The translations under genes and the position numbers were made by a program. A stretch of 64,000 nucleotides of DNA from Escherichia phage 241, in sequence record OR924452; one strand, 5' to 3'. Shown piece by piece: positions 3,006 through 49,016 of the stretch; positions within the stretch are counted from its first letter, which is position 1, and the number at the start of each line of letters is the position of its first letter. The notes under the pieces were generated by a model that searched no databases, was not told where the DNA came from, and saw only the letters and a list, made by a program, of their open reading frames with translations.

Positions 3006-6000
3006 ATGCAATCTACAAATCTAAACCGTCGCCCGTATTGGGACGACTGGAATCCTGGAAAACGGTTTTCACGGATTCTTTTTCGCCCGATGCCTATTAA
3101 AGTTCAGACTCGTGAACTAAACCAGATGCAGACTATTCTGCAAGATCAGATTGAAAAGCTGGGAAACCATTTGTTCAAAGATGGATCTATGGTTATCCCT
3201 GGTGGTCTGACGATTACCAACGCCGCTGTATCTATGAAATTCACTCTGGCTGGCGGTACTGAGTTTACTGATCTGGAAGGGATTACTGAACTTTATGTTC
3301 TGGGAAAAGACAATAATGCCAAAGCGCGTGTGCTATCTCTTGAACGTGATCTGTCTGCTCCGGATACGATGTTGGCCATCCTTGAAATGACAGAAGTGGG
3401 TAATGCAGATGGCTTCCACGTCAACGACAATCTGTATTTCCAAACCTATGACGTCAATGACAACTTCATTCGTATTGGTTATGGTATCGCAGCTGCGGTG
3501 ACTGGTTCTATCGTCGCTCGTATGACGAAGGGCGTTTACTTCATTCGTGGGATGTTCCTTGATGTTGATGACGCGACTCTCATCGTCGATAAAACTTCAA
3601 ACACTTCTTCCCATCGCGTCGGGTTTAAAGTCACTGAAACCATCGTGACTGAATCTGAAGACGAATCCCTTTATTCAAACGCTCAGGGAACGATTAACTC
3701 CAAAGCCCCAGGCGCTCATCGTCTTCGAATAGATCTGGTCTTATCTCGATTTGATTATGATGCTGTGGTTGAAGACTTTGTTGAACTGGCCAAAGTTCGT
3801 GATGGTAAAATCCAGTCTATGGTGACTCAGTCCACCTATAATATTCTGGAAGACACGTTGGCTCAACGGACGTATGAAACCAACGGCGATTACAACGTTT
3901 CAACGCATCAGATCGACATCCGCGAACACCTGAAAGTCAATAACAATGGTGGTGTATTCAATGCTGCTGATGGCGGCGACGAAAGTAAATTCGTGTCTGT
4001 AATGAAACCAGGTATTTCCTATGTTCGCGGTCGTCGTATCGAAAACGTCGGGGAAGAGTTGGTGATCGTTGACAAGGCACGGGATACCGATGTCCTGAAT
4101 AACACGCCTGTCGCAGTTGCTACAGGGAATTATCTGGTCACCAAGAACTCCAAAGGTGTTCCAGTAATATCTCGCACTGTGCGATACAAGTTATTGAACG
4201 CATCTGGCGCTGCTCAAGCCACGGCGTTGTGTATATCCGCTGAACGCAATTCAACTGAATTCCGTCTGTACATGCGTGATTTGGTTGTGACTGGGGACGC
4301 GTCCACTATCACCAAAGTGTCTTATGAAGAAAGTGGTATCACCATGTTCTCTGCTGAACTGGAATCCAACCAGTTTAACCAGAGTTCTATGGTAGACTTG
4401 ATCTTCTCTCTTCCGGTCTTCGGTGTTAAAACATTAGCGCCAACAGGTTCCGTGGATATCAACTACACAGTCCTCAGAACTTATAAGGTGACGCTAGACA
4501 GCAGCGGTTCTGGTTCTATTTCAGCTCCGCTGGGATATAGTTTCTCTCCTGAATTTTCGTTGTATTCTTCTGCGAAATCCGATGGTTCAGAAGCGCAATT
4601 TGATATCTCTGGCTCTTTGTCACTGACTGGTTCTCCGGTGGGTTCGGCTTTGCAGATTTCCCTGGGTAGCGGTAATGCTAACCAGTCAATCAATTTGCTG
4701 GCACTGATGATCCGCACTACGGCCACGATCAAAACGAAGACGATAACTGAAACCACAGAGTCTGTGACTTTTACTTCCCAAACCAGTAGACCTCTGGCAA
4801 ATCACGACGGCTGGAAATTGGTATCTGTCAAAAATGATACTGGCGCGGACGTGACTTCGAGCTTCACCCTCGACGGTGGCCAACGCGATGCGGGATATTA
4901 CAAGGCTAATCTGTTATCCACCGCTGGAGCCATTTCAGGGACGTATACGGTGGTGTATCAATACTTCGCGCATAGTTCGGGGGATTTCTTCTCAGCGGAT
5001 TCGTATACTTCAATGGATTACAAAGATATCCCGAATTATACATCCTCCACATCAGGGGCGGTGTATGGTTTGGCCGATAGCCTTGATTTCCGTCCGAAAA
5101 TTACCAACGGGACATCCGACACTGATATGGTTCGCCCGAATACGGCTGTCATCCTGGACACAGAGTATTATTTGCCTCGTATCGACGCGATTTATCTGGC
5201 AGATAATGGCGTGTTTGGTGTAGCCCGTGGCATCAGTTCCAACAACCTGGCGTCCCCAGCAATACCTGCAAACTCCATGCGTTTGTATGAACTGTTGATT
5301 CCCCCATACACGCCGAATATCGATGATATACAAATTCGCACCATCGATAACCGTCGTTATACGATGCGTGATATCGGTAAACTGGAAACGCGTATTTCCA
5401 ACGTTGAATACTACACCTCTCTGTCGCAGCTGGAATCTTCGGCGATGACACAACAGGTATTTGATCCAATCACGGGTAATCCGCGATTCAAAAACGGTAT
5501 CGCCGCCGATCCATTCAAAGACTTCCGTCTTATTGATGATCTGTCTGAAGATTGGATGGGATCTATCGATACGGAAAATGGACGTTTGCGTCCGTTTGTT
5601 CAACAGAACGCCGTTGACATGACTCCAGTAGGCTGGAACAAAGTGATGGATGGTATGGTGGTTTGTAACTACACGCCTGAAATCTCCGTGAACCAAGAAT
5701 ACGCGACGACGACGATCAACGTTAACCCGTATGCTGTATTCAACTGGGAAGGTTTCTTGAAGATTAACCCGACCACGGATTACTGGTTTGAAAACTACTA
5801 TGTCGCCCCGCGTGTTATCAATGAAACGATCAACACTCGTGGTACTGTACAAGAAGGTTCGGTGTACGGGACGTGGCGTACTGTTTCTGTTTCTGATCGT
5901 GTTTGGGAGCCGCATGGCGCTGGTGGTGTGTGGTGGGGATACCGCTATCGCACGACTGTTTCTGCCCGTGATGTCACCACATACACATACACGGACAAAA

Positions 6001-39693: not shown

Positions 39694-39960
39694 TTCTTCA
39701 AAAGTCTTTCAAAATCAATAACGTCCGGCAAAATGCTGGGCGTTTCAATTAATAAGCCAAGGTATAATGGCCCAACTGAAAACGCGGGGGAATTTCTTTG
39801 TCCAAGCCATTCATTCGTTCCGGAGTTGATTCTCTAGACTCCCAGTTTAAGCCGAGCGAAGTTTTAATCCAACAAATTGAAACCAATCGTGAATTCATAG
39901 AACACATGTTGGCAAAGCCGGAAGGTGAAGCCGCTCAAACCACCAAAGAAGGTAATAACG

Positions 39961-42177
39961 ATGATTGAATCATTAACATTTAAAAATGCGGTAGCAACCG
40001 TCGCGCCGTCTAACCATGTAATCGTTGTGGATATCTCCGGTTCCATGTACCGTTCACTTCCTGAAGTTCGCAAGCATCTGAAGGAAAATCTCCCGTCTCT
40101 GGTTAAACCAGAAGATACCGTCAGCATTCTTTACTTTTCATCCCGTGGTGATTTCGGTACGGTATTCGCTGGCCGTCAGATCAATAGCGCGACCGATCTC
40201 AGTGAAATCAATAAACTGATTGACCGCTTCCTGCAACCGTCCGGTTGTACGGGATTTGTAGAACCTCTGAAGTTGGCTGCTGAAACCGCGTTGAGCCTGA
40301 ACAAACCTGGTTATGTCAATAACCTGGCGTTCATGACCGACGGCTATGACAACTGCTGGCGCTCGAATGAAATTCTGGCAGCAGCTGAAGTACTGCCCAA
40401 GGCGTTCGATAATATTACATTCATCGAATATGGCTGGTACTGTAACCGCGAACTTCTGGCCCTGATGTCCGAGCGTTCTGGCGCGACTCACGTGTTTGCC
40501 GAAGGTCAGACTGAATATCAGACCGAACTGGAAAACGTACTGAAATCATCTACGCCGAAAGTGGTTGTTGATGTTCCCCTGGTTTACACTCATGCCATTT
40601 ACGTTGAAAACGGCGTGGCAACTGTGCTAGCCGTACAACCCGATGAAGAACACCCGATTGGCCACGTCAGCATCCCTGAAAGCGTTTCTCAGCTGTGGGT
40701 TGTAAACCCTGACATGATCGACCAGCTGGATAATCTGGCAGACACCCAGGCGGCATACGTGCTGGCATTCTATGGCGTGTACACCATGGACGCCGATCTG
40801 GTCTGGGCCGCGCTGAAGAAGACGGGTGACGTCCGCTTCATCAAACAATACAGCAACTGTTTCACCAAGCAGGACTATTCCAACATCAAAGTCGATCTGA
40901 CCCAGGCTATCGTGGATGAAACTCTGCGCGGCGTAGATGGCATCGATTACAATATGGTTCCAGCTGAAGATGCAACGACCATTGTTGATGTCTTGACCTA
41001 CCTGGCCGAAGCCGATGTCTCTGTTGTCACTAAGCATCCGCTGTTCTCTTACAACAGCATCGGTCGCGGTACTGTGCAGAAAGTTGATGACACTGAAGAC
41101 AAGCTGGCTGAACAAATCGCCGAAGCCAAAACCAAAGCAGAGCGTAAAGCGCTGGCTCTCAAACTGGCTGAGCACGAAGATTGGACGCCGGAATTTACTC
41201 CGGTTGATGACAAAGGGATTGTCCCAATTAGCAATCTGGTCTACAATTCAGAGCGCCCTAACATCAGCATTCAGACCGTTCAGCATGGGACGGTTGTTGT
41301 GCCGGAGTTCGTACAGAAGAAATATGAACTCCCTGAAGAACTGGGAACCTGGCGTTATCGTAATTACACCATCGTCAAAGATGGAATCATCAACCTGAAG
41401 ACGATGCCGATTACTGCCGAATCTCCGATTGTCCGAGCTAAGGTTGTCCAAGATTTGATCGCCATGGGCGTTAATGTATTTGGTGGACCGGAAATCTTCA
41501 TCGTTAATTTAGAAAGTGTTCCGATGGTCAACCGCGCCATGACCAAGAACATCAGTGCTGCCGAATTCTTCGCTGACAACGTTCGTCGCGAAGCGCTGAA
41601 GGCAAAACAGAAAGTTCTGAAATTCTATCGTGATGAACTGGTTGGCAAAGGCAATGCAACTGGTCTGGCTTCTAAATATGGTAAAGAAGCCGCCGATTTC
41701 TTGTCGGCAAATGGCATTCGCGACTACGGGTTCTCGCCGAAAACTACTTCTGTGGAATCAACCGATGTCTACATGAGCCGTGAGCTGAATGTGAAAATCA
41801 AAGGTGCTTCGTCGCTGCCGAGCATTGCGTCAGTTATCAAAAAGCAAGCAGATGGTAAAAAACTGAATGTCGCTGATCAGTTGATTGCCAATGCTCTGGC
41901 CGAATACGACGCTTTTGTTAAATCTCCAATGATCACCAGCGTACCTGAAGAGACTCAGAAAAAGCTGATTGAAAGCTGGATCGGAGACGCAGCAAAAGCG
42001 GCCATTAACGAAGTCCGCGCCCTGAACAAAACGCTGTCTAAAGTCGTTTACGGCATCGTCGCTGGTCATGGTTGGTTCACTGATTTGGATCTGGAAGAGT
42101 CTACGATGGATGTAGAAGTTGATGGGGTGAAATACACCGTCACTGCCGAACTGGCCGAAAAAGAAATCAAAATCTAA
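39961..42177 (+). CDS. von Willebrand factor type A (vWA) domain protein with long C-terminal extension
   Basis: MIDAS motif VVDISGSM (DxSxS) and downstream MTDGYDN; ATG 39961 preferred over upstream GTG 39925. Confidence 0.65.
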   Translation: MIESLTFKNAVATVAPSNHVIVVDISGSMYRSLPEVRKHLKENLPSLVKPEDTVSILYFSSRGDFGTVFAGRQINSATDLSEINKLIDRFLQPSGCTGFVEPLKLAAETALSLNKPGYVNNLAFMTDGYDNCWRSNEILAAAEVLPKAFDNITFIEYGWYCNRELLALMSERSGATHVFAEGQTEYQTELENVLKSSTPKVVVDVPLVYTHAIYVENGVATVLAVQPDEEHPIGHVSIPESVSQLWVVNPDMIDQLDNLADTQAAYVLAFYGVYTMDADLVWAALKKTGDVRFIKQYSNCFTKQDYSNIKVDLTQAIVDETLRGVDGIDYNMVPAEDATTIVDVLTYLAEADVSVVTKHPLFSYNSIGRGTVQKVDDTEDKLAEQIAEAKTKAERKALALKLAEHEDWTPEFTPVDDKGIVPISNLVYNSERPNISIQTVQHGTVVVPEFVQKKYELPEELGTWRYRNYTIVKDGIINLKTMPITAESPIVRAKVVQDLIAMGVNVFGGPEIFIVNLESVPMVNRAMTKNISAAEFFADNVRREALKAKQKVLKFYRDELVGKGNATGLASKYGKEAADFLSANGIRDYGFSPKTTSVESTDVYMSRELNVKIKGASSLPSIASVIKKQADGKKLNVADQLIANALAEYDAFVKSPMITSVPEETQKKLIESWIGDAAKAAINEVRALNKTLSKVVYGIVAGHGWFTDLDLEESTMDVEVDGVKYTVTAELAEKEIKI

Positions 42178-42183
42178 ATCTAA

Positions 42184-42210
42184 TTGGCGGGGAAACCCGC
42201 CTTTACTTTC
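42184..42210 (+). terminator. hairpin terminator
   Basis: GGCGGG-GAAA-CCCGCC hairpin followed by TTTACTTTC. Confidence 0.5.
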
Positions 42211-42215
42211 AGGAA

Positions 42216-42533
42216 ATGAATATGAGCAACAAACCGACTTATGTTGATGTCATGCGCGATTTGGCCCAATACGCATGTGACAACCTGAACATGGAAACTT
42301 GGCGCAACGGCGATCATAAAGAAAAGTTCGATAATATCGACGACAACATCGATGCGTTGGCTCCTCTTCGGGCCAAGAGCGATCTCGGCGGTGATGATCT
42401 TGACATGATTGAACTCATCATGGAAGTTGAAGAACAATATGATGTTGAAATCAGTGATGACTGGGTAGGCAAACATGGTGATGATCCCACGCTCGGCGAA
42501 TTAGCTGAATTGGTAGTTGCCCTCCGCAAATAG
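42216..42533 (+). CDS. acyl-carrier-protein-like protein with Asp in place of the phosphopantetheine-attachment Ser
   Basis: LGGDDLDMIELIMEVEEQYDVEISDD resembles ACP LGADSLDTVELVMALEEEF...IPDE but has DDL instead of DSL; start may be 42222. Confidence 0.5.
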   Translation: MNMSNKPTYVDVMRDLAQYACDNLNMETWRNGDHKEKFDNIDDNIDALAPLRAKSDLGGDDLDMIELIMEVEEQYDVEISDDWVGKHGDDPTLGELAELVVALRK

Positions 42534-42537
42534 CAGA

Positions 42538-42566
42538 AGTCCCCAACAAACCGTTGGGGATTTTTA
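42538..42566 (+). terminator. rho-independent terminator
   Basis: CCCCAAC-AAACC-GTTGGGG hairpin followed by ATTTTTACTTTT. Confidence 0.65.
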
Positions 42567-42655
42567 CTTTTAGGGGGTTTACTCTAGAGAAAGGATACCC
42601 TATTATCCAATAACACCAAACGTCGGGTTTGGTATTTGAAATGAAGGAATATAAT
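42556..42655 (+). repeat. direct repeat copy A (promoter plus 5' leader), about 100 bp
   Basis: GGGGATTTTTACTTTTAGGGG..TTTAC...CCTATTAT..CAATAAC shared with copy B. Confidence 0.6.
42577..42606 (+). promoter_or_regulatory. sigma70-like early promoter (-35 GTTTAC, -10 TATTAT)
   Basis: GTTTAC, 17-18 nt spacer, TATTAT; within repeat copy A. Confidence 0.45.
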
Positions 42656-42892: not shown

Positions 42893-42925
42893 TCCCCAAT
42901 AATTTATTGGGGATTTTTACTTTTA
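42893..42925 (+). terminator. rho-independent terminator
   Basis: CCCCAAT-AATTT-ATTGGGG hairpin followed by ATTTTTACTTTT. Confidence 0.6.
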
Positions 42926-43003
42926 GGGGTTTACTTCTTCTAACGAATATCCTATTATTCAATAACTGGCTAACGTGGGGTTGGCTAGAAAAGGAGATAC
43001 AAA
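42909..43003 (+). repeat. direct repeat copy B (promoter plus 5' leader)
   Basis: Imperfect copy of 42556-42655. Confidence 0.6.
42929..42958 (+). promoter_or_regulatory. sigma70-like early promoter (-35 GTTTAC, -10 TATTAT)
   Basis: Within repeat copy B. Confidence 0.45.
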
Positions 43004-43858: not shown

Positions 43859-44308
43859 ATGTTTCTTACATCCTTTATTGACTGGATGAATATCATAAAT
43901 GGCCTGAGGATTCCTGTTGGGAATCTCGGGCTTTCTCGTTCTTCTATGCCGCAAATCGATGCAGACAAACAAGAAGATTTTCACAAATATCTTGAAGATA
44001 ATGGCGTGTCCATAGATGCCGCACAAGTGCCCATCAAAATGCTTCGTCTTACCCAGAATGAAATCAATAAAATGAAGGTCTGGAAGATCATGAAGCAAAT
44101 CAGAAATAAGAAACCCATGGGTCGAGTTTGGGTGTCTTCTGACAATTACGTTGTTGACGGTTCTCACCGATTTGTCGCTGCGTTGAACATGGATGGTAAA
44201 CAGCGAATGAAGGTCTACAAAGTTGATTTGCCTGCGATGGAATTCGTAAAACTCGCCAAACAATTTCAGGGTGTGCGGTACAGAACGGTCAGCGATACCC
44301 GTTTCTGA
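43859..44308 (+). CDS. ParB-like nuclease domain protein
   Basis: VVDGSHRFVAALNMDGKQRMKVYKV matches the ParB/Srx DGxHR signature. Confidence 0.5.
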   Translation: MFLTSFIDWMNIINGLRIPVGNLGLSRSSMPQIDADKQEDFHKYLEDNGVSIDAAQVPIKMLRLTQNEINKMKVWKIMKQIRNKKPMGRVWVSSDNYVVDGSHRFVAALNMDGKQRMKVYKVDLPAMEFVKLAKQFQGVRYRTVSDTRF

Positions 44309-44387
44309 ATACGATAGTTTATTGAAACCCTTTACTCAACATGGTGAGCCGACTATCATTTTATCCAATGAAATAAGGAGAATCACC

Positions 44388-45077
44388 ATGAAACGTTTAA
44401 TCATCGGGGTTGTGCTGGCTGGTCTGGCACTTCCTGCCACCGCCAAGCTGAACTCCACAGGTGAAAAACTGTGGTCTGATCTTTCCTACTGTGCTGGGTT
44501 CTCCCAGGCGGTCGCTATCGACAAGTCCGGTTCCATAGAGAATTTTGCTGAACTTTGGAACACGGGTAACGTCTCCACTGCTGTTGTTAATGCTGGGATT
44601 GAGTTCAACCGTTACAAACAGGGAGCCTACAACTTGAAAGGCTACCTGAATGACGATGAATTTAACCGAGGAGGCATGGAGGCTGGCGATCTCATCATGA
44701 CTGGCCGTATGGGTACACAAGGCCGTATGACTGTAAGGCAATGCCGTTCTCTCCCCTCTCCGGCATTACAGAAGGGTGTGCAAATCGGGCGTCGACATCT
44801 GGATCTGATTAATGATGGCAACCAATGCATCAAGGTGTTTGAATATAGTGCCGACCAAGAATCAGATCGACGTTTGAAAAAGGAATGGCGGACACGTGCC
44901 CTTGGATTGAGAGCATGGCTGGTGGAAAATGATCATTATTATGAAGACCGTGTTCAGAATGGTTTGAAAGATCTTTCCACTAATTTGTCTGTCAATCTTG
45001 ATGATCCCAGGCTTGCCCGTGAACTCAAGCAAACAAGAATTGACTGTGATAATATGATGAAGGAGAACGAAAGATGA
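44388..45077 (+). CDS. secreted/periplasmic protein (signal peptide)
   Basis: MKRLIIGVVLAGLALPATA signal peptide; AAGGAG RBS; ATG 44388 inside ORF 44271-45077. Confidence 0.5.
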   Translation: MKRLIIGVVLAGLALPATAKLNSTGEKLWSDLSYCAGFSQAVAIDKSGSIENFAELWNTGNVSTAVVNAGIEFNRYKQGAYNLKGYLNDDEFNRGGMEAGDLIMTGRMGTQGRMTVRQCRSLPSPALQKGVQIGRRHLDLINDGNQCIKVFEYSADQESDRRLKKEWRTRALGLRAWLVENDHYYEDRVQNGLKDLSTNLSVNLDDPRLARELKQTRIDCDNMMKENER

Positions 45078-45394
45078 GAAACATAATATTCTTGTTATTC
45101 TTTTCTATGTTGGCATCATTCCAAGTTGTGGCAACTCCGGCTAGCAAATTGAATATGTGTGCGGCGTGGTTGTCTACTTATCAACAATTTCACCCTGATG
45201 ATAAAGATACATCCATCCTTTTATCAGATTATGAAGGTGAGTTGAAACGCCTTGATCTCTACAGCGTGGATCAAATAGAGAATGCTTTGGATTTGCCAAT
45301 GATGGAGTCCGCTGCCGACAATAGCAAACAGACGATCAAAGATCTGACTATGTGTCGGGAAATAGCGACTAATTTCGTTGGAAATCAAAGATAA
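45074..45394 (+). CDS. small secreted protein (signal peptide)
   Basis: MRNIIFLLFFSMLASFQVVA signal peptide; overlaps previous gene by 4 nt. Confidence 0.5.
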   Translation: MRNIIFLLFFSMLASFQVVATPASKLNMCAAWLSTYQQFHPDDKDTSILLSDYEGELKRLDLYSVDQIENALDLPMMESAADNSKQTIKDLTMCREIATNFVGNQR

Positions 45395-45441
45395 TTTTCA
45401 GGTTAAAATTTAACTTCCATTGAACTGAAAGGAAATACTTC

Positions 45442-46251
45442 GTGATGATTATTACCAAAAAGATCGCCGAATCGATCATTGAAAAGAATAAGATGTTCGC
45501 GCCCAACAAAGCAAAGGTCATTCTGATTCACGAAGACGGGCGCGTCATCTTCGCTGAAAAGTTCGAGCAGGGTTGTGCTTTCTGGTTCGCAGACACTATG
45601 CGCGAAAGTAAGCTGCAGGGCATCATCTATAAACTGACTCTGGTTGCCAAGCGCAATGATCAGGGTGATTGGGTTACGGTCTGCGATTTTAGCTCTAAGG
45701 TTGAAACTAAACCCAAAACCCGCCAAGAAAGGATTTTAGAGGCTCAGGAAAAACTTCGAGTCGCTCGCACATCATCCGCGGAGAAGCCGGAAATCAAACC
45801 AGCCGTTATGCCTGTCACCAATAATCCGCTCCCACCTGTGGGTCAAAAGGCTTTCGAACAATATGTTGAAAAGAGAAGAGAAGAATCCATGAAGCCTCCG
45901 GTAGAAAATAATGATGAGTCCGAATTTATTTCAATACGACAGTTGTGTCCGCAAGAACAACGCTATTCTTCTCCAAATGATTTATTTGTGTCATTCCGAT
46001 GCAACGGAAAGATCATATTGTGTAAAACTCTGCGTGAACAACTACCATGGCCGAACATCAATATGATGGTAAGCCGGAATTTTAAACGATTTGCTATTAG
46101 TGAAGGGAACGATTATCCCGTAAACAAGAGCGGAACGTATGCCAACAAACATATGTCTAGTAAGTTGTCTTTCCCTAACGATTCTGGCACTATTCGTGTT
46201 CGTTTAGAATGGGATGAAACCCTGAACATGTATGTTGGTGATATAAAGTAA
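45442..46251 (+). CDS. hypothetical protein (269 aa)
   Basis: ORF with GAAAGGAAA RBS. Confidence 0.5.
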   Translation: MMIITKKIAESIIEKNKMFAPNKAKVILIHEDGRVIFAEKFEQGCAFWFADTMRESKLQGIIYKLTLVAKRNDQGDWVTVCDFSSKVETKPKTRQERILEAQEKLRVARTSSAEKPEIKPAVMPVTNNPLPPVGQKAFEQYVEKRREESMKPPVENNDESEFISIRQLCPQEQRYSSPNDLFVSFRCNGKIILCKTLREQLPWPNINMMVSRNFKRFAISEGNDYPVNKSGTYANKHMSSKLSFPNDSGTIRVRLEWDETLNMYVGDIK

Positions 46252-46308
46252 TTCAATAACAATCGGGCGGTTATTATTAAACCGCCTTTTATTTGAGAGA
46301 TCTATATT

Positions 46309-46980
46309 ATGGACAAATCTTATCCTATCATCCTTGGCGCAGACCAAGGAAACCTTCGATTCTCAGAACCTTGTTATATTGCTTATGCCCGTGTTGGTGG
46401 GGACAAATACGTGTATTGCCAACATGACTGTGGGCGTGGTACAGGCATCCTTCATTACACGATGAATGACACGACGATGGTCTCTTTGAAGCCAGAAGAC
46501 GTTGTGTTGGCGAGGCGGGTTTACATCGACTTCAACGCGATGCACAATAATGAAATTGACGCACGTTATCATGCCATGAAATGTATGGAAGGTCATGGGA
46601 TTATCTATCGTATTGATCACTTCGATGATTTCACTCAATCGATTGATTGGTTTGTTTCTGACAAAGTGATGGGCGAACGGATTGTTACGACTTCTTGGGC
46701 GCATGCAGAACAACTCAGGGTTTCCACTGATGCTTACGGAGAAGTAGACGCGTTGTGTCATAAATTCCGCATTTCGGTGGATTGTAACGAAGACCTGGGT
46801 GAAGAGATCCAATGGACTGCCGAATCACCACATTTTCGCGGACTTGAGATGCGTTCCGAAAGCCGTTCCCGCGCCGTCGTTCAATTAGTCCTGTGGGCGT
46901 TCTACCAGCGTACCCCGTTCTCTTACATGGGGCAGAAAGGAATTGATGAACTACTTAAATCCCACTCGGTGGAGGTGTAA
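46309..46980 (+). CDS. hypothetical protein (223 aa)
   Basis: ORF; no family recognised. Confidence 0.5.
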   Translation: MDKSYPIILGADQGNLRFSEPCYIAYARVGGDKYVYCQHDCGRGTGILHYTMNDTTMVSLKPEDVVLARRVYIDFNAMHNNEIDARYHAMKCMEGHGIIYRIDHFDDFTQSIDWFVSDKVMGERIVTTSWAHAEQLRVSTDAYGEVDALCHKFRISVDCNEDLGEEIQWTAESPHFRGLEMRSESRSRAVVQLVLWAFYQRTPFSYMGQKGIDELLKSHSVEV

Positions 46981-46981
46981 T

Positions 46982-47269
46982 ATGTCCGGTGTATGGTGTG
47001 ATGTATTATTAGTGAGATTTTCAAACGGGATGGATAATCAGATCATTTCATTCTTTTATCCTGTTCCCTTTTCTTCTATGGGTCTGACTGTCAAGCGCGT
47101 TCTTGACATAGAAGAAAAACTCAACGCCATGCCGTATATGGCGCGACCACACGTGCTGGGTTGTGAACTGTTAAACGAAATGATGATTGACGAGAATCTT
47201 GTTGAAACAATTATCACGCGTGAACAGATGAAAACCATACTGTCTCAGGGAGAACCCCATGTCGAATAA
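46982..47269 (+). CDS. hypothetical protein (95 aa)
   Basis: ATG 46982 directly after previous stop. Confidence 0.4.
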   Translation: MSGVWCDVLLVRFSNGMDNQIISFFYPVPFSSMGLTVKRVLDIEEKLNAMPYMARPHVLGCELLNEMMIDENLVETIITREQMKTILSQGEPHVE

Positions 47270-47579
47270 ACCGTTTGAACTTAAATTTCGCGTTTGGCAT
47301 ATTCCCCAGGTTCCTGGGATCGCTTTTCATGTTGAGGTTCCAACATTTGAAGAAGCGCAGCGCCTGAAGAATACTCTGGCTGATTACGACCTGTTTCAGT
47401 ATAACAATAACATCAAGCCGGATTATTGTAATGCTTCCGGCGTTCAAATATACCAACATGATCTGACTGAAGAAGATCTAAATGATATGGGTCTGGATGA
47501 TCGTTGGGTTGATATCGAAGATATTGACGAACTCAACGATTATTTTGATCATCTGCGTAGCACAGGGTGGGAAATATGA
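47259..47579 (+). CDS. hypothetical acidic protein (106 aa)
   Basis: ORF overlapping neighbours. Confidence 0.45.
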   Translation: MSNKPFELKFRVWHIPQVPGIAFHVEVPTFEEAQRLKNTLADYDLFQYNNNIKPDYCNASGVQIYQHDLTEEDLNDMGLDDRWVDIEDIDELNDYFDHLRSTGWEI

Positions 47580-47785
47580 TCGGGTTAATCCGTTATCTGT
47601 TCATATTCGTAATTTCAACATTCATTTTATTTTTCTTTTTCAAATACTTGAAAGAGACTAAAATCTACCGAAGTAAACGTTGGCGCAAACGGGTGAGGGT
47701 AACTTTCCTGCTGCTGATTTCTTCGGTTACAATAACCGCACTCACATTGGGTGCATATATCTACATTTTTGAAGGGATACATTGA
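47567..47785 (+). CDS. small membrane protein (two predicted TM helices)
   Basis: Hydrophobic segments IGLIRYLFIFVISTFILFFFF and VTFLLLISSVTITALTLGAYIYIF. Confidence 0.4.
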   Translation: MGNMIGLIRYLFIFVISTFILFFFFKYLKETKIYRSKRWRKRVRVTFLLLISSVTITALTLGAYIYIFEGIH

Positions 47786-48576
47786 TGTTCAAGAAATTGG
47801 TGTTCGGTGCAATTATGGTTCTGGCTGCAAGTCTACTTTCTGGTTGTGGTGGCGTTATCGATGAAGGTAATGTCGGCGTTCGCACCCAATGGGGTGAAGT
47901 AGACATGAACCCTGTAACAGCGGGGATCTACACCAGCTTTGTTTCAAGCGTGGATGTTTACACGACCAAAGAAGCCGTTGTGAGTCTGACTAAAATGACG
48001 CCAAAGGCCAAAGACAACCTGACTCTGGAAGACTTGGATGTGGATGTTTATTACACACCCAATGTCGCAAAGGTTCCGTGGTTCCATACCAAATTTGCTG
48101 GCCAGAGCGCTGAACTCGATGATGGCACGATAGCGGTGGGTTTCAATCTAGTTAAAACTGCTGCAGCATCTTCTTCGATGGACGCCGTTTCTTCTCTTGA
48201 TTCTATGACAATCCACACCCAACGTGCTGAATTAGAGAAGATGATTAAAGACCGCACTCAGCAACAATTAGAGACTGCAGCGCCTGGCATGTTCACAATC
48301 ACACGCGTGTTGGTCAAAAAGGCGCTGACGGATCCTTCTATTGAGCAGTCTATCCGTGATAATGTTATGGCGGACAAACGATTGGATACGGCAAGAAAGA
48401 ACGTTGAAATTCGCGAGCAAGAAGCCCAAGCGAACCAGAAACTGACCACTTCGCTGACGCCTGAATATCTTCAACATGAATATAACATGGTATTACAATC
48501 ATGTGCCAACAGTGGAAAATGTACTCTGATCGTTGACGGATCCGGCTCAGGTAAAATGCTGAACGTCGGCAAATAA
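47782..48576 (+). CDS. SPFH/band-7-like lipoprotein
   Basis: Signal with lipobox LLSGC; beta-rich N-region followed by helical Ala/Gln/Glu-rich region, reminiscent of SPFH domains. Confidence 0.45.
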   Translation: MMFKKLVFGAIMVLAASLLSGCGGVIDEGNVGVRTQWGEVDMNPVTAGIYTSFVSSVDVYTTKEAVVSLTKMTPKAKDNLTLEDLDVDVYYTPNVAKVPWFHTKFAGQSAELDDGTIAVGFNLVKTAAASSSMDAVSSLDSMTIHTQRAELEKMIKDRTQQQLETAAPGMFTITRVLVKKALTDPSIEQSIRDNVMADKRLDTARKNVEIREQEAQANQKLTTSLTPEYLQHEYNMVLQSCANSGKCTLIVDGSGSGKMLNVGK

Positions 48577-48938: not shown

Positions 48939-48988
48939 TCACATCCAGAGCGGTCGTGCCTAGCACAGCGTGTTAGGCTAAAAGAGAA

Positions 48989-49016
48989 AGCCGAGGTTAA
49001 TGCCTCGGCTTTTTCG
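48989..49016 (+). terminator. rho-independent terminator
   Basis: AGCCGAGG-TTAATG-CCTCGGCT hairpin followed by TTTT. Confidence 0.7.

Follow-up and report, generated by a model that had tools for sequence, protein, structure and literature searches.

Among membrane organisers, the SPFH proteins form a major class that is still unsolved. The described systems closest to the one reported here are the HflK/HflC–FtsH complex of Escherichia coli and the SPFH–NfeD systems, among them QmcA–YbbJ (PDB 8z5g). We compare with them a region of Escherichia phage 241, positions 44388 to 48576 of a stretch of 64,000 nucleotides (sequence record OR924452; hereafter the window). Its eight genes, all on the + strand, encode four proteins of exported type and four non-exported ones; the last gene encodes a predicted lipoprotein of the SPFH/Band 7 family and lies directly behind the gene of a small protein with two transmembrane (TM) segments. 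The region is best explained as an island of two independent modules, a secreted pair and a two-TM/SPFH envelope module, a reading to which we give an even chance.

The phage SPFH protein resembles HflK and HflC in its N-terminally anchored, predicted periplasmic SPFH domain with a long helix, in its Band_7 match, and in a fold match over the full length. It differs in being the product of a single, accessory gene, in its predicted lipid anchor, and in its shorter length (263 amino acids, aa), and the conserved neighbor of its gene encodes a 69-aa hairpin, not a protease. With QmcA–YbbJ, it shares the tight linkage and common orientation of the SPFH gene and a gene for a small membrane protein. 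The fold match to QmcA has an E value of 2.6e-9. As a model of how the phage pair might function, with a ring around the helices of the partner, this complex is the best analogy. The phage system differs in that its partner has no NfeD/OB-fold domain and its predicted anchor is a lipid. The SPFH domain of QmcA is cytoplasmic, unlike the predicted periplasmic domain of the phage protein.

Phage-encoded envelope proteins that exclude superinfecting phages include the lipoprotein Llp of T5 and the proteins Imm and Sp of T4. Their likeness to the region is general in kind, and Pfam at E ≤ 0.1 gave no family for the products of 44388, 45074, or 47567 (genes are named by their start positions) that would link them. 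PM0222, an HflK/C-like SPFH protein of 25–35 kDa from a Pasteurella multocida prophage, occurs in outer-membrane vesicles and was studied as a virulence factor (PMC9872710). It is likewise a phage-borne SPFH protein that reaches the envelope; the two were compared by description only, and the likeness serves as a lead. Our literature search found no experimental work on a two-TM/SPFH pair, nor on phage SPFH proteins in defence or counter-defence. In public records, genes of the region already bear the names "spanin," "superinfection exclusion," and SPFH/Band 7 lipoprotein. What is added here is the case against the spanin label and the recognition of a recurrent pairing of a two-TM protein with an SPFH lipoprotein.

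Exported proteins cluster in one region of the window

The four genes of exported type are the following:

44388..45077, + strand: 229-aa secreted (periplasmic) protein, predicted, PHROG 4260, "i-spanin" in relatives; ATG start preceded by AAGGAG
45074..45394, + strand: 106-aa secreted protein, predicted, PHROG 3843 "Rz-like spanin"; ATGA overlap with the 44388 gene
47576..47785, + strand: 69-aa two-TM hairpin protein (72 aa from GTG 47567); the start in relatives is ATG 47576
47785..48576, + strand: 263-aa SPFH/Band 7 lipoprotein, predicted (264 aa from TTG 47782); the start in relatives is ATG 47785

Signal and TM calls were based on hydropathy, the −3/−1 rule, lipobox patterns, and conservation in orthologues. 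In a census of the 77 non-overlapping open reading frames (ORFs) of the window, an N-terminal signal or TM segment was found for four of the eight ORFs in the region and for at most two of the 69 elsewhere (Fisher p = 7e-4; p = 5e-5 without two doubtful ORFs). All clear exported proteins of the window fall within the region, and their clustering exceeds chance. An earlier inspection of the DNA letters (the sequence-only reading) had proposed two overlapping genes with classical signal peptides at 44388 and 45074, a small two-TM protein at 47567, and an SPFH/band-7-like lipoprotein at 47782. These assignments were borne out: both signal peptides are present, with A-x-A-type and VVA ends, the small protein has two hydrophobic segments with a basic loop between them, and the lipoprotein combines a lipobox (LSGC) with a Band_7 match above the Pfam gathering score and a matching predicted fold. 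Neither of the two outcomes that would have refuted that reading, missing signal peptides or an SPFH assignment without profile support, occurred. The roles it offered for such proteins, namely superinfection exclusion, lysis inhibition, or envelope remodelling, are plausible; it mentioned neither the public spanin annotation of the first two genes nor the conserved pairing of the two-TM and SPFH genes. We hold the anatomy of the region as given here with high confidence. PADLOC and NCBIfam searches (E ≤ 0.01) gave no match for any of the eight proteins.

The sequence from 44200 to 48700 matches 222 phage records, nearly all of them Vi01-like Ackermannviridae of the genus Kuttervirus, and is 97.6% identical to the Salmonella phages STML-13-1, rabagast, and S115; by this similarity, the window is assigned to a Kuttervirus (Vi01-like, Ackermannviridae). 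In annotated relatives, the left flank of the region carries genes for a vWA-domain protein and an acyl carrier protein and the right flank those for HU, a helicase, RNase H, and a late sigma factor. The flanks are thus a replication/early-type neighborhood.

The SPFH lipoprotein

The N-terminus of the SPFH protein reads M(M)FKKLVFGAIMVLAASLLSG/C (slashes mark predicted cleavage sites), and the Cys of the lipobox LSGC is residue 22 (Cys21 from the ATG). The stretch MFKKLVFGAIMVLAASLLSG/C consists of an n-region, a hydrophobic core, and a lipobox of the type [LVI][ASTVI][GAS]C within about 35 residues, and lipidation is predicted. In the profile search that the sequence-only reading had proposed for this gene, PF01145 (Band_7) matched residues 25–217 with an E value of 3.2e-13 and 50.5 bits, compared with a gathering score of 23.6. 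The AlphaFold model, built with 21 diverse homologues, reached a predicted local distance difference test (pLDDT) value of 78.5 and contains strands at residues 22–92, helices, a strand at 170–182, a helix of 40 residues at 184–223, and a further helix. The SPFH domain begins two to three residues past the lipobox Cys. Foldseek searches of the PDB with this model returned prohibitin, erlin, HflK/C–FtsH, stomatin, and QmcA–YbbJ (E 1e-13 to 1e-9, 230–290 aligned columns), and a viral structure library yielded many Band 7 proteins of phages and giant viruses. A sequence search of the PDB with the SPFH protein found nothing significant.

Homologues of the SPFH protein form 216 clusters at E ≤ 0.001. 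The following counts refer to the best 120 of these, all of which carry PF01145. A lipobox is present in 113 of the 120, and the other seven have an N-terminal TM helix, that is, an HflK/C-like topology. Two or more Cys residues are found in the C-terminal 45 residues of 82 homologues, with a conserved LTPEFLQHEYN...C.....C motif; this Cys pair fits an oxidizing compartment and, hence, a periplasmic location of the SPFH domain. The two TM-anchored homologues with readable context are bacterial chromosomal genes near argR and argG, and neither has a two-TM neighbor. Because these TM-anchored proteins are encoded on bacterial chromosomes, the ancestral location was probably the inner membrane, and the data suggest that the phage clade goes back to a cellular SPFH protein of the periplasm with an anchor in the inner membrane. 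When one genome of each bacterial species was scanned with one exact peptide pattern, only two loci with the lipoprotein type turned up, which suggests that the lipoprotein clade is rare in cellular genomes.

The closest cellular relatives (L071, 2501–3406; approximately 41% identity) come from metagenomic bacteria, have a TM anchor, and are divergent from argR/argG. Two further records carry an SPFH gene that is 97–98% identical to the Kuttervirus gene, namely "Enterococcus phage Efm 3-10" (OR844945.1, 7.9 kb) and "Pseudomonas phage Pa-sanjiao" (MN871475.1, 158 kb); both are probably mislabeled or contaminated. Mass spectrometry of a CsCl-purified preparation of Sajous1, a close relative, yielded three spectra of the SPFH protein, a sign that it is produced in infected cells, although the authors regard such low spectral counts as possible contamination (PMC10892097).

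A two-TM protein accompanies the SPFH gene

The protein encoded at 47576 has two hydrophobic segments with 10 Lys/Arg residues in the loop between them. Since the charge sits in this inter-helix loop, an N-out/C-out topology of the hairpin is predicted. Its gene overlaps the upstream gene 47259, which encodes a homologue of P22 gp17, by ATGA and the SPFH gene by TGATG. The neighborhood of the SPFH gene was compared in 31 loci outside Kuttervirus (SPFH identity 32–65%), which stem from phage contigs of approximately 110 kb, a 204-kb contig, Erwinia phage Bue1, and two contigs from bacterial genomes. A protein of 56–70 aa with the order TM1, basic loop, TM2, and very short tail is encoded by the ORF directly 5′ of the SPFH gene in 29 of these loci. 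This architecture occurred in about 12 of about 680 other ORFs of the same loci. Pfam gave no match, NfeD included, for the two-TM protein and 20 of its counterparts, apart from scattered weak membrane-protein noise. In four lineages, the neighbors of the module are replication/early-type genes and not lysis genes.

Within the Ackermannviridae, the two-TM and SPFH genes are both present in loci of the Kuttervirus type and both missing from ten loci of other lineages. In phage kage, a single in-frame deletion has left residues 1–17 of the two-TM protein fused to the final 66 of the SPFH protein (L066, 4450–4701), and in phages STP55 and GG32, the match to the SPFH gene is limited to its C-terminal quarter. 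Because these three were deposited as isolated phages, the module does not appear to be needed for growth on the host used for isolation. The recurrent combination of two-TM hairpin and SPFH lipoprotein is a phage-specific variant of the SPFH–partner operons, with another anchor and another partner.

The secreted pair

The products of 44388 and 45074 both have a charged n-region, a hydrophobic core, and small residues at −3 and −1, as expected for Sec export and cleavage by signal peptidase I (SPase I). The 229-aa protein begins with MKRLIIGVVLAGLALPATA/KL, in which an n-region with KR and a hydrophobic core of 12 residues precede P-A-x-A (A-T-A/K). P16, A17, A19, and four Cys residues (35, 119, 147, 220) are invariant across 17 homologues. 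The 106-aa protein begins with MRNIIFLLFFSMLASFQVVA/TP; its signal ends in VVA/TP, it has two conserved Cys residues, and in this phage, no lipobox is present. The −3/−1 cleavage motif is retained in orthologues even where the remaining signal peptide has been replaced.

Signal peptides of the 106-aa family have been swapped among lineages, while the mature part is 76–99% identical. In L009, for example, nine of the 21 signal peptide residues are identical but 84 of the 85 residues of the mature part. A lipobox is found on the homologue in three of the 23 related loci (L014, L015, L017), whereas the window and 19 other loci have SPase I signals ending in VVA/T, VLA/A, AYA/A, VHA/A, or ALA/V. 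As signal peptides were exchanged while the mature protein was conserved, the lipid anchor seems to be optional in this family. Distant homologues of the 229-aa protein (34–38% identity; P0151, P0152) also begin with cleavable signals. The versions of Bue1 and Serratia phage 3M have retained a cleavable signal and the Cys pair of the N-terminal half, and the C-terminal half is missing.

All Ackermannviridae-like loci that were examined have kept the pair, and judged by this distribution, both are core genes of the Ackermannviridae. The 229-aa family comprises 30 clusters among 5.8 billion proteins. An exhaustive HMMER search with the 229-aa protein gave 10 representatives at E ≤ 1e-3 in 1.8 billion, all phage-like and uninformative on function, and the family appears to be essentially confined to Ackermannviridae-like phages. 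Sequence searches of the PDB found nothing significant for the 106-aa protein or the profile of the 229-aa family. The AlphaFold model of the 229-aa protein (17 sequences, all at least 77% identical) had a pLDDT of 42 and was unusable. BLASTP detected no similarity between the two proteins, which are therefore not considered paralogues. Module 1 (44388–45394) would thus consist of two translationally coupled proteins that are exported by Sec, cleaved by SPase I, and probably stabilized by disulfides as soluble proteins of the periplasm. From their signals, we conclude that both are most likely soluble periplasmic proteins in this phage and not spanins.

One system or two modules

The region may be an envelope/accessory island of two modules, possibly from a shared ancestral cassette. 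The alternative that fares best unites the four exported proteins in a single envelope system, in which the periplasmic pair would cooperate with the two-TM/SPFH module, and takes the cytoplasmic genes between them in Kuttervirus as later insertions. We consider this rather unlikely, although the confinement of all clear exported proteins of the window to this region would suit it. In a divergent 156-kb phage (L065), the four genes are directly adjacent with gaps or overlaps of 0–4 nucleotides, and in Bue1 (L040), they are contiguous save for two small ORFs, with the homologues of 45442 and gp17 coming after them. However, the secreted pair is kept in at least 10 loci of other Ackermannviridae that have no two-TM/SPFH genes within the 6-kb flank, and conversely, many phages have the two-TM/SPFH pair without the secreted pair. 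Natural deletions take out the two-TM and SPFH genes only. In the window, a terminator-like hairpin at 46265–46287 separates the modules. The single cluster that the sequence-only reading had described is thus found, completely or nearly so, in L065 and Bue1, whereas the window has two modules of differing conservation.

Proposed arrangement in the envelope

In module 2 (47576–48576), the hairpin would span the inner membrane with both ends in the periplasm and its basic loop in the cytoplasm. The SPFH protein would be lipid-tethered at its N-terminus to a membrane, most likely the inner one, with the SPFH domain in the periplasm. By analogy to HflK/C–FtsH and QmcA–YbbJ, the lipoprotein may assemble into a ring or cage at the periplasmic side of the membrane and interact with the two-TM partner by surrounding it; ring and hairpin together would then form a phage-made membrane microdomain. 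A ring around the hairpin is the simplest model because the SPFH domain is predicted to be periplasmic and because every solved relative assembles into a ring or cage around membrane clients (FtsH, NfeD).

For the role of the module, we tentatively suggest, by analogy, an accessory conditioning of the envelope during infection, either as exclusion of competitor phages or as protection against premature membrane collapse. Envelope conditioning is favored over lysis on three grounds: the neighborhood is of the early type, the module is accessory, and no lysis genes lie nearby; a lysis role is less likely. If the module does exclude competitors or stabilize the membrane, this matters for biocontrol cocktails in which Kuttervirus phages are directed against Salmonella or E. 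coli O157. More speculative, and rated somewhat lower, is the idea that large virulent phages of unrelated lineages wall off or reorganize a patch of the host membrane with a minimal SPFH cage, phage-specific and so far unrecognized, that has a built-in client. Its purpose could then be to block the DNA entry of competitors or to blunt membrane-targeting abortive-infection effectors, and in the Ackermannviridae it may stem from a four-gene envelope cassette that included the secreted pair. The module is attractive as a minimal SPFH system, being compact and lipid-anchored, with a near-constant partner of 60–70 aa and natural knock-outs.

Several observations weigh against our main reading. The SPFH lipoprotein has Gly at +2 and +3, and in enterobacterial lipoprotein sorting, Asp at +2 is needed for inner-membrane retention (PMC6469965), which would place it in the outer membrane, where it would be unable to surround a partner that sits in the inner one. 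A documented exception to this rule is MexA, whose +2 residue is Gly (PMC6469965). Gly occupies position +2 in 80 of the 120 homologues, followed by Phe in 10, Ser in six, Met in five, and Tyr in four; none has Asp there. Older reports have described Gly, Phe, or Tyr at +2 as non-canonical signals for retention in the inner membrane. The two-TM proteins have a mean column identity of 31% and no invariant column; they share architecture and position but almost no sequence, so their homology is not proven. The contiguity of the four genes in L065 and Bue1 could mean that both modules cooperate. Lastly, the expression timing that we infer draws on weak promoter consensus matches only.

HflK/C mimicry, holin, and spanin

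The SPFH lipoprotein might alternatively mimic HflK/C and bind or trap the host FtsH from the periplasm, thereby altering the turnover of membrane proteins of the phage or the host. This is unlikely. Its SPFH domain is predicted to be periplasmic like those of HflK/C, and its fold matches the HflK/C–FtsH structures 9cz2, 7vhq, and 7wi3 (E 1e-12 to 1e-9), but the fold matches to prohibitin, erlin, and stomatin are equally good, and no HflK or HflC equivalog of NCBIfam was matched at E ≤ 0.01. The name "regulator of protease activity HflC" given to some relatives is generic COG-type labeling. Moreover, a single SPFH gene is present, not an HflK/HflC pair, and the two-TM mini-protein conserved as its partner points to a self-contained module.

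Even less probable is a function of the two-TM protein as a holin or pinholin, with the SPFH lipoprotein as its regulator, in lysis timing or as a non-canonical spanin. With approximately 70 aa and two TM segments, the protein resembles class II holins; however, the charge lies in the inter-helix loop and not in a C-terminal tail, and no consistent family match was obtained (one of 21 members, weakly, E 0.03). An inner-membrane gene that overlaps a lipoprotein gene recalls the architecture of spanin genes, and no holin has been identified in Vi01-like phages. Yet the module is missing in other, equally "spanin-less" lineages of the Ackermannviridae, the deposited isolate kage has lost it, STP55 and GG32 match the C-terminus of the SPFH gene only, and in none of the loci examined does an endolysin gene lie beside it. 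As a class II holin, the protein was rejected on the loop charge, the family searches, and the missing endolysin neighbor.

That the products of 44388 and 45074 form a two-component spanin, with the 229-aa protein as the inner-membrane and the 106-aa protein as the outer-membrane subunit, which fuse both membranes at lysis, is the least probable of these alternatives, as the defining anchors are missing. Relatives carry the annotations "i-spanin," "Rz-like spanin," or "putative lipoprotein" for the pair, and the name of PHROG 3843 is in line with them; the label goes back to a single annotation of phage Marshall, made by a student and unverified. As in lambda Rz/Rz1, the genes are adjacent and overlapping (ATGA), and both products are Sec-targeted with conserved Cys residues. 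In contrast to Rz/Rz1, the pair of the window has no TM anchor, lipobox, or coiled coil and apparently lies outside a lysis cassette. The Marshall-like lineage does have a lipobox on the small protein (LIAG/C in the Marshall orthologue, a good one), and Kongari et al. 2018 included the Marshall pair in their spanin census (PMC6139136), where it stands as a singleton family and has the greatest periplasmic length of all. However, the 106-aa protein has no lipobox and only an A-x-A signal in the window and in 20 of the 23 related loci. The 229-aa protein has a 12-residue core and an invariant P-A-x-A cleavage motif and no TM anchor, and the curators' spreadsheet for the Marshall "i-spanin" gives zero coiled coil and 35% helix (PMC6139136). 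The C-terminal half of the 229-aa protein is absent in Bue1 and Serratia phage 3M.

An i-spanin is defined by an uncleaved TM anchor and a coiled-coil domain; the candidate was rejected on its predicted cleavable-type signal and the Marshall orthologue without coiled coil, and the 106-aa protein of the window was rejected as an o-spanin, for which a lipobox Cys is required. Vi01-like phages have no other recognized spanin. Still, the same census lists Vi01, Maynard, SFP10, CBA120, PhaxI, ECML-4, AG3, and Dickeya RC-2014 as spanin-less (PMC6139136), although Vi01, Maynard, CBA120, SFP10, and AG3 carry the same genes; Cba120, ECML-4, and PhaxI encode a 106-aa protein that is 99–100% identical. 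The genome announcement of phage Mutine states that neither holin nor spanin could be reliably identified. No holin or endolysin gene lies near the overlapping pair, and in the relative STML-13-1, the annotated endolysin is approximately 21 kb distant; lysis genes are dispersed in T4-like phages, too. Spanin labels have spread through dozens of Ackermannviridae genomes and PHROG 3843, most members of which do not have the defining anchors, and the pair should not count as the answer to how Vi01-like phages breach the outer membrane.

Cytoplasmic genes and variable cargo

The stretch between the secreted pair and the HU gene is a variable island across relatives; in the window, the whole island is bordered by a ParB-like gene on one side and the HU gene on the other. 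The non-exported genes and the borders are the following:

43859-44308: left-hand neighbor gene, "putative structural protein" (from Dickeya phage Limestone) or "ParB N-terminal domain-containing protein" (Guerrero)
45442..46251, + strand: 269-aa cytoplasmic protein, PHROG 3828; no hydrophobic segment
46309..46980, + strand: 223-aa cytoplasmic protein, "ImpD" in relatives, PHROG 5426
46982..47269, + strand: 95-aa DUF7425 protein (Pfam PF24200, E 1.3e-51); no export signal
47259..47579, + strand: 106-aa homologue of P22 gp17 ("superinfection exclusion gene product 17"), cytoplasmic, PHROG 1510; no signal or TM segment
48660..48938, + strand: HU-like DNA-binding protein (PF00216, E 1.6e-29), right border of the island

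The 269-aa protein, which is conserved throughout the Ackermannviridae, was found in all related loci with 36–100% identity. In rabagast (L001, 4246–5057), its ORF is annotated as two (4246–4698 and 4695–5057), which may reflect a frameshift or a sequencing error in the record. At the "ImpD" position, two alleles that are 35–38% identical occur among phages whose flanking genes are 95–100% identical, and since divergent alleles lie between near-identical flanks, an allele replacement is suggested.

The product of 47259 is a clear member of the P22 gp17 family (PF17420, full profile, 167 bits compared with a cut-off of 25, E 1e-49), here in a virulent myovirus. It is the only protein of the region with a "superinfection exclusion" family name and, having no export signal, stands outside the exported set. 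A literature search found no paper on P22 gene 17. In Serratia phage 3M, gp17 lies beside a Lar-like restriction-alleviation protein (L070, 6371–7167).

Many close relatives, among them Vi01, STML-13-1, Guerrero, and kage, have an extra gene of approximately 300 bp between the gp17-like and the two-TM genes (L004, 23377–23685; L066, 4145–4453). Its product is a LysM protein of 102 aa that has no signal peptide and is often annotated as "endolysin"; the gene is missing at the corresponding junction of the window (47576–47579) and likewise in rabagast and S115. In the locus of another divergent relative (L069, 2745–3077 and 5782–6189), the cargo includes a third secreted protein, and a Phage_VG64 (PF25682) lipoprotein takes the position just in front of HU.

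Flanking genes and transcription signals

The HU gene is kept in all related loci. The left-hand neighbor (43859–44308) is 83–100% conserved inside the main family and 61–70% in divergent relatives. Just upstream of the island, at 39925–42533, a gene for a 750-aa vWA-domain protein is followed by one for a phage-encoded acyl carrier protein, an unusual pair.

Consensus scans for promoters and terminators gave the following candidates:

44331..44359, + strand: sigma-70-like promoter match TTTACT-17-TATCAT, upstream of the secreted pair (consensus scan only)
46265..46287, + strand: terminator-like GC hairpin with a T-run, between the modules
48987-49012: hairpin terminator 3′ of the HU gene

In the region, 20 promoter consensus matches were counted, compared with 15.7 expected. 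The T4-type late promoter TATAAATA matched twice in the window, which is the chance level, and not within the region; a search for a degenerate promoter-tail motif, in an overly strict pattern, gave no match. The literature search found nothing on the timing of transcription in Kuttervirus. The form TTTACT-N17-TATTAT also precedes the small genes 42629 and 43004. There it belongs to a repeated unit at 42540–42620 and 42893–42970 (also 44331–44375 and 58622), which contains a hairpin (AAATCCCCAA...TTGGGGATTT). After the hairpin, the unit continues with TTTACTTTTAGGGG(G)TTTACT-N17-CTATTAT(C/T)CAATAAC just upstream of 42629 and 43004, and a weaker copy lies before 44388. The unit may be an early-promoter cassette of the phage that follows a terminator.

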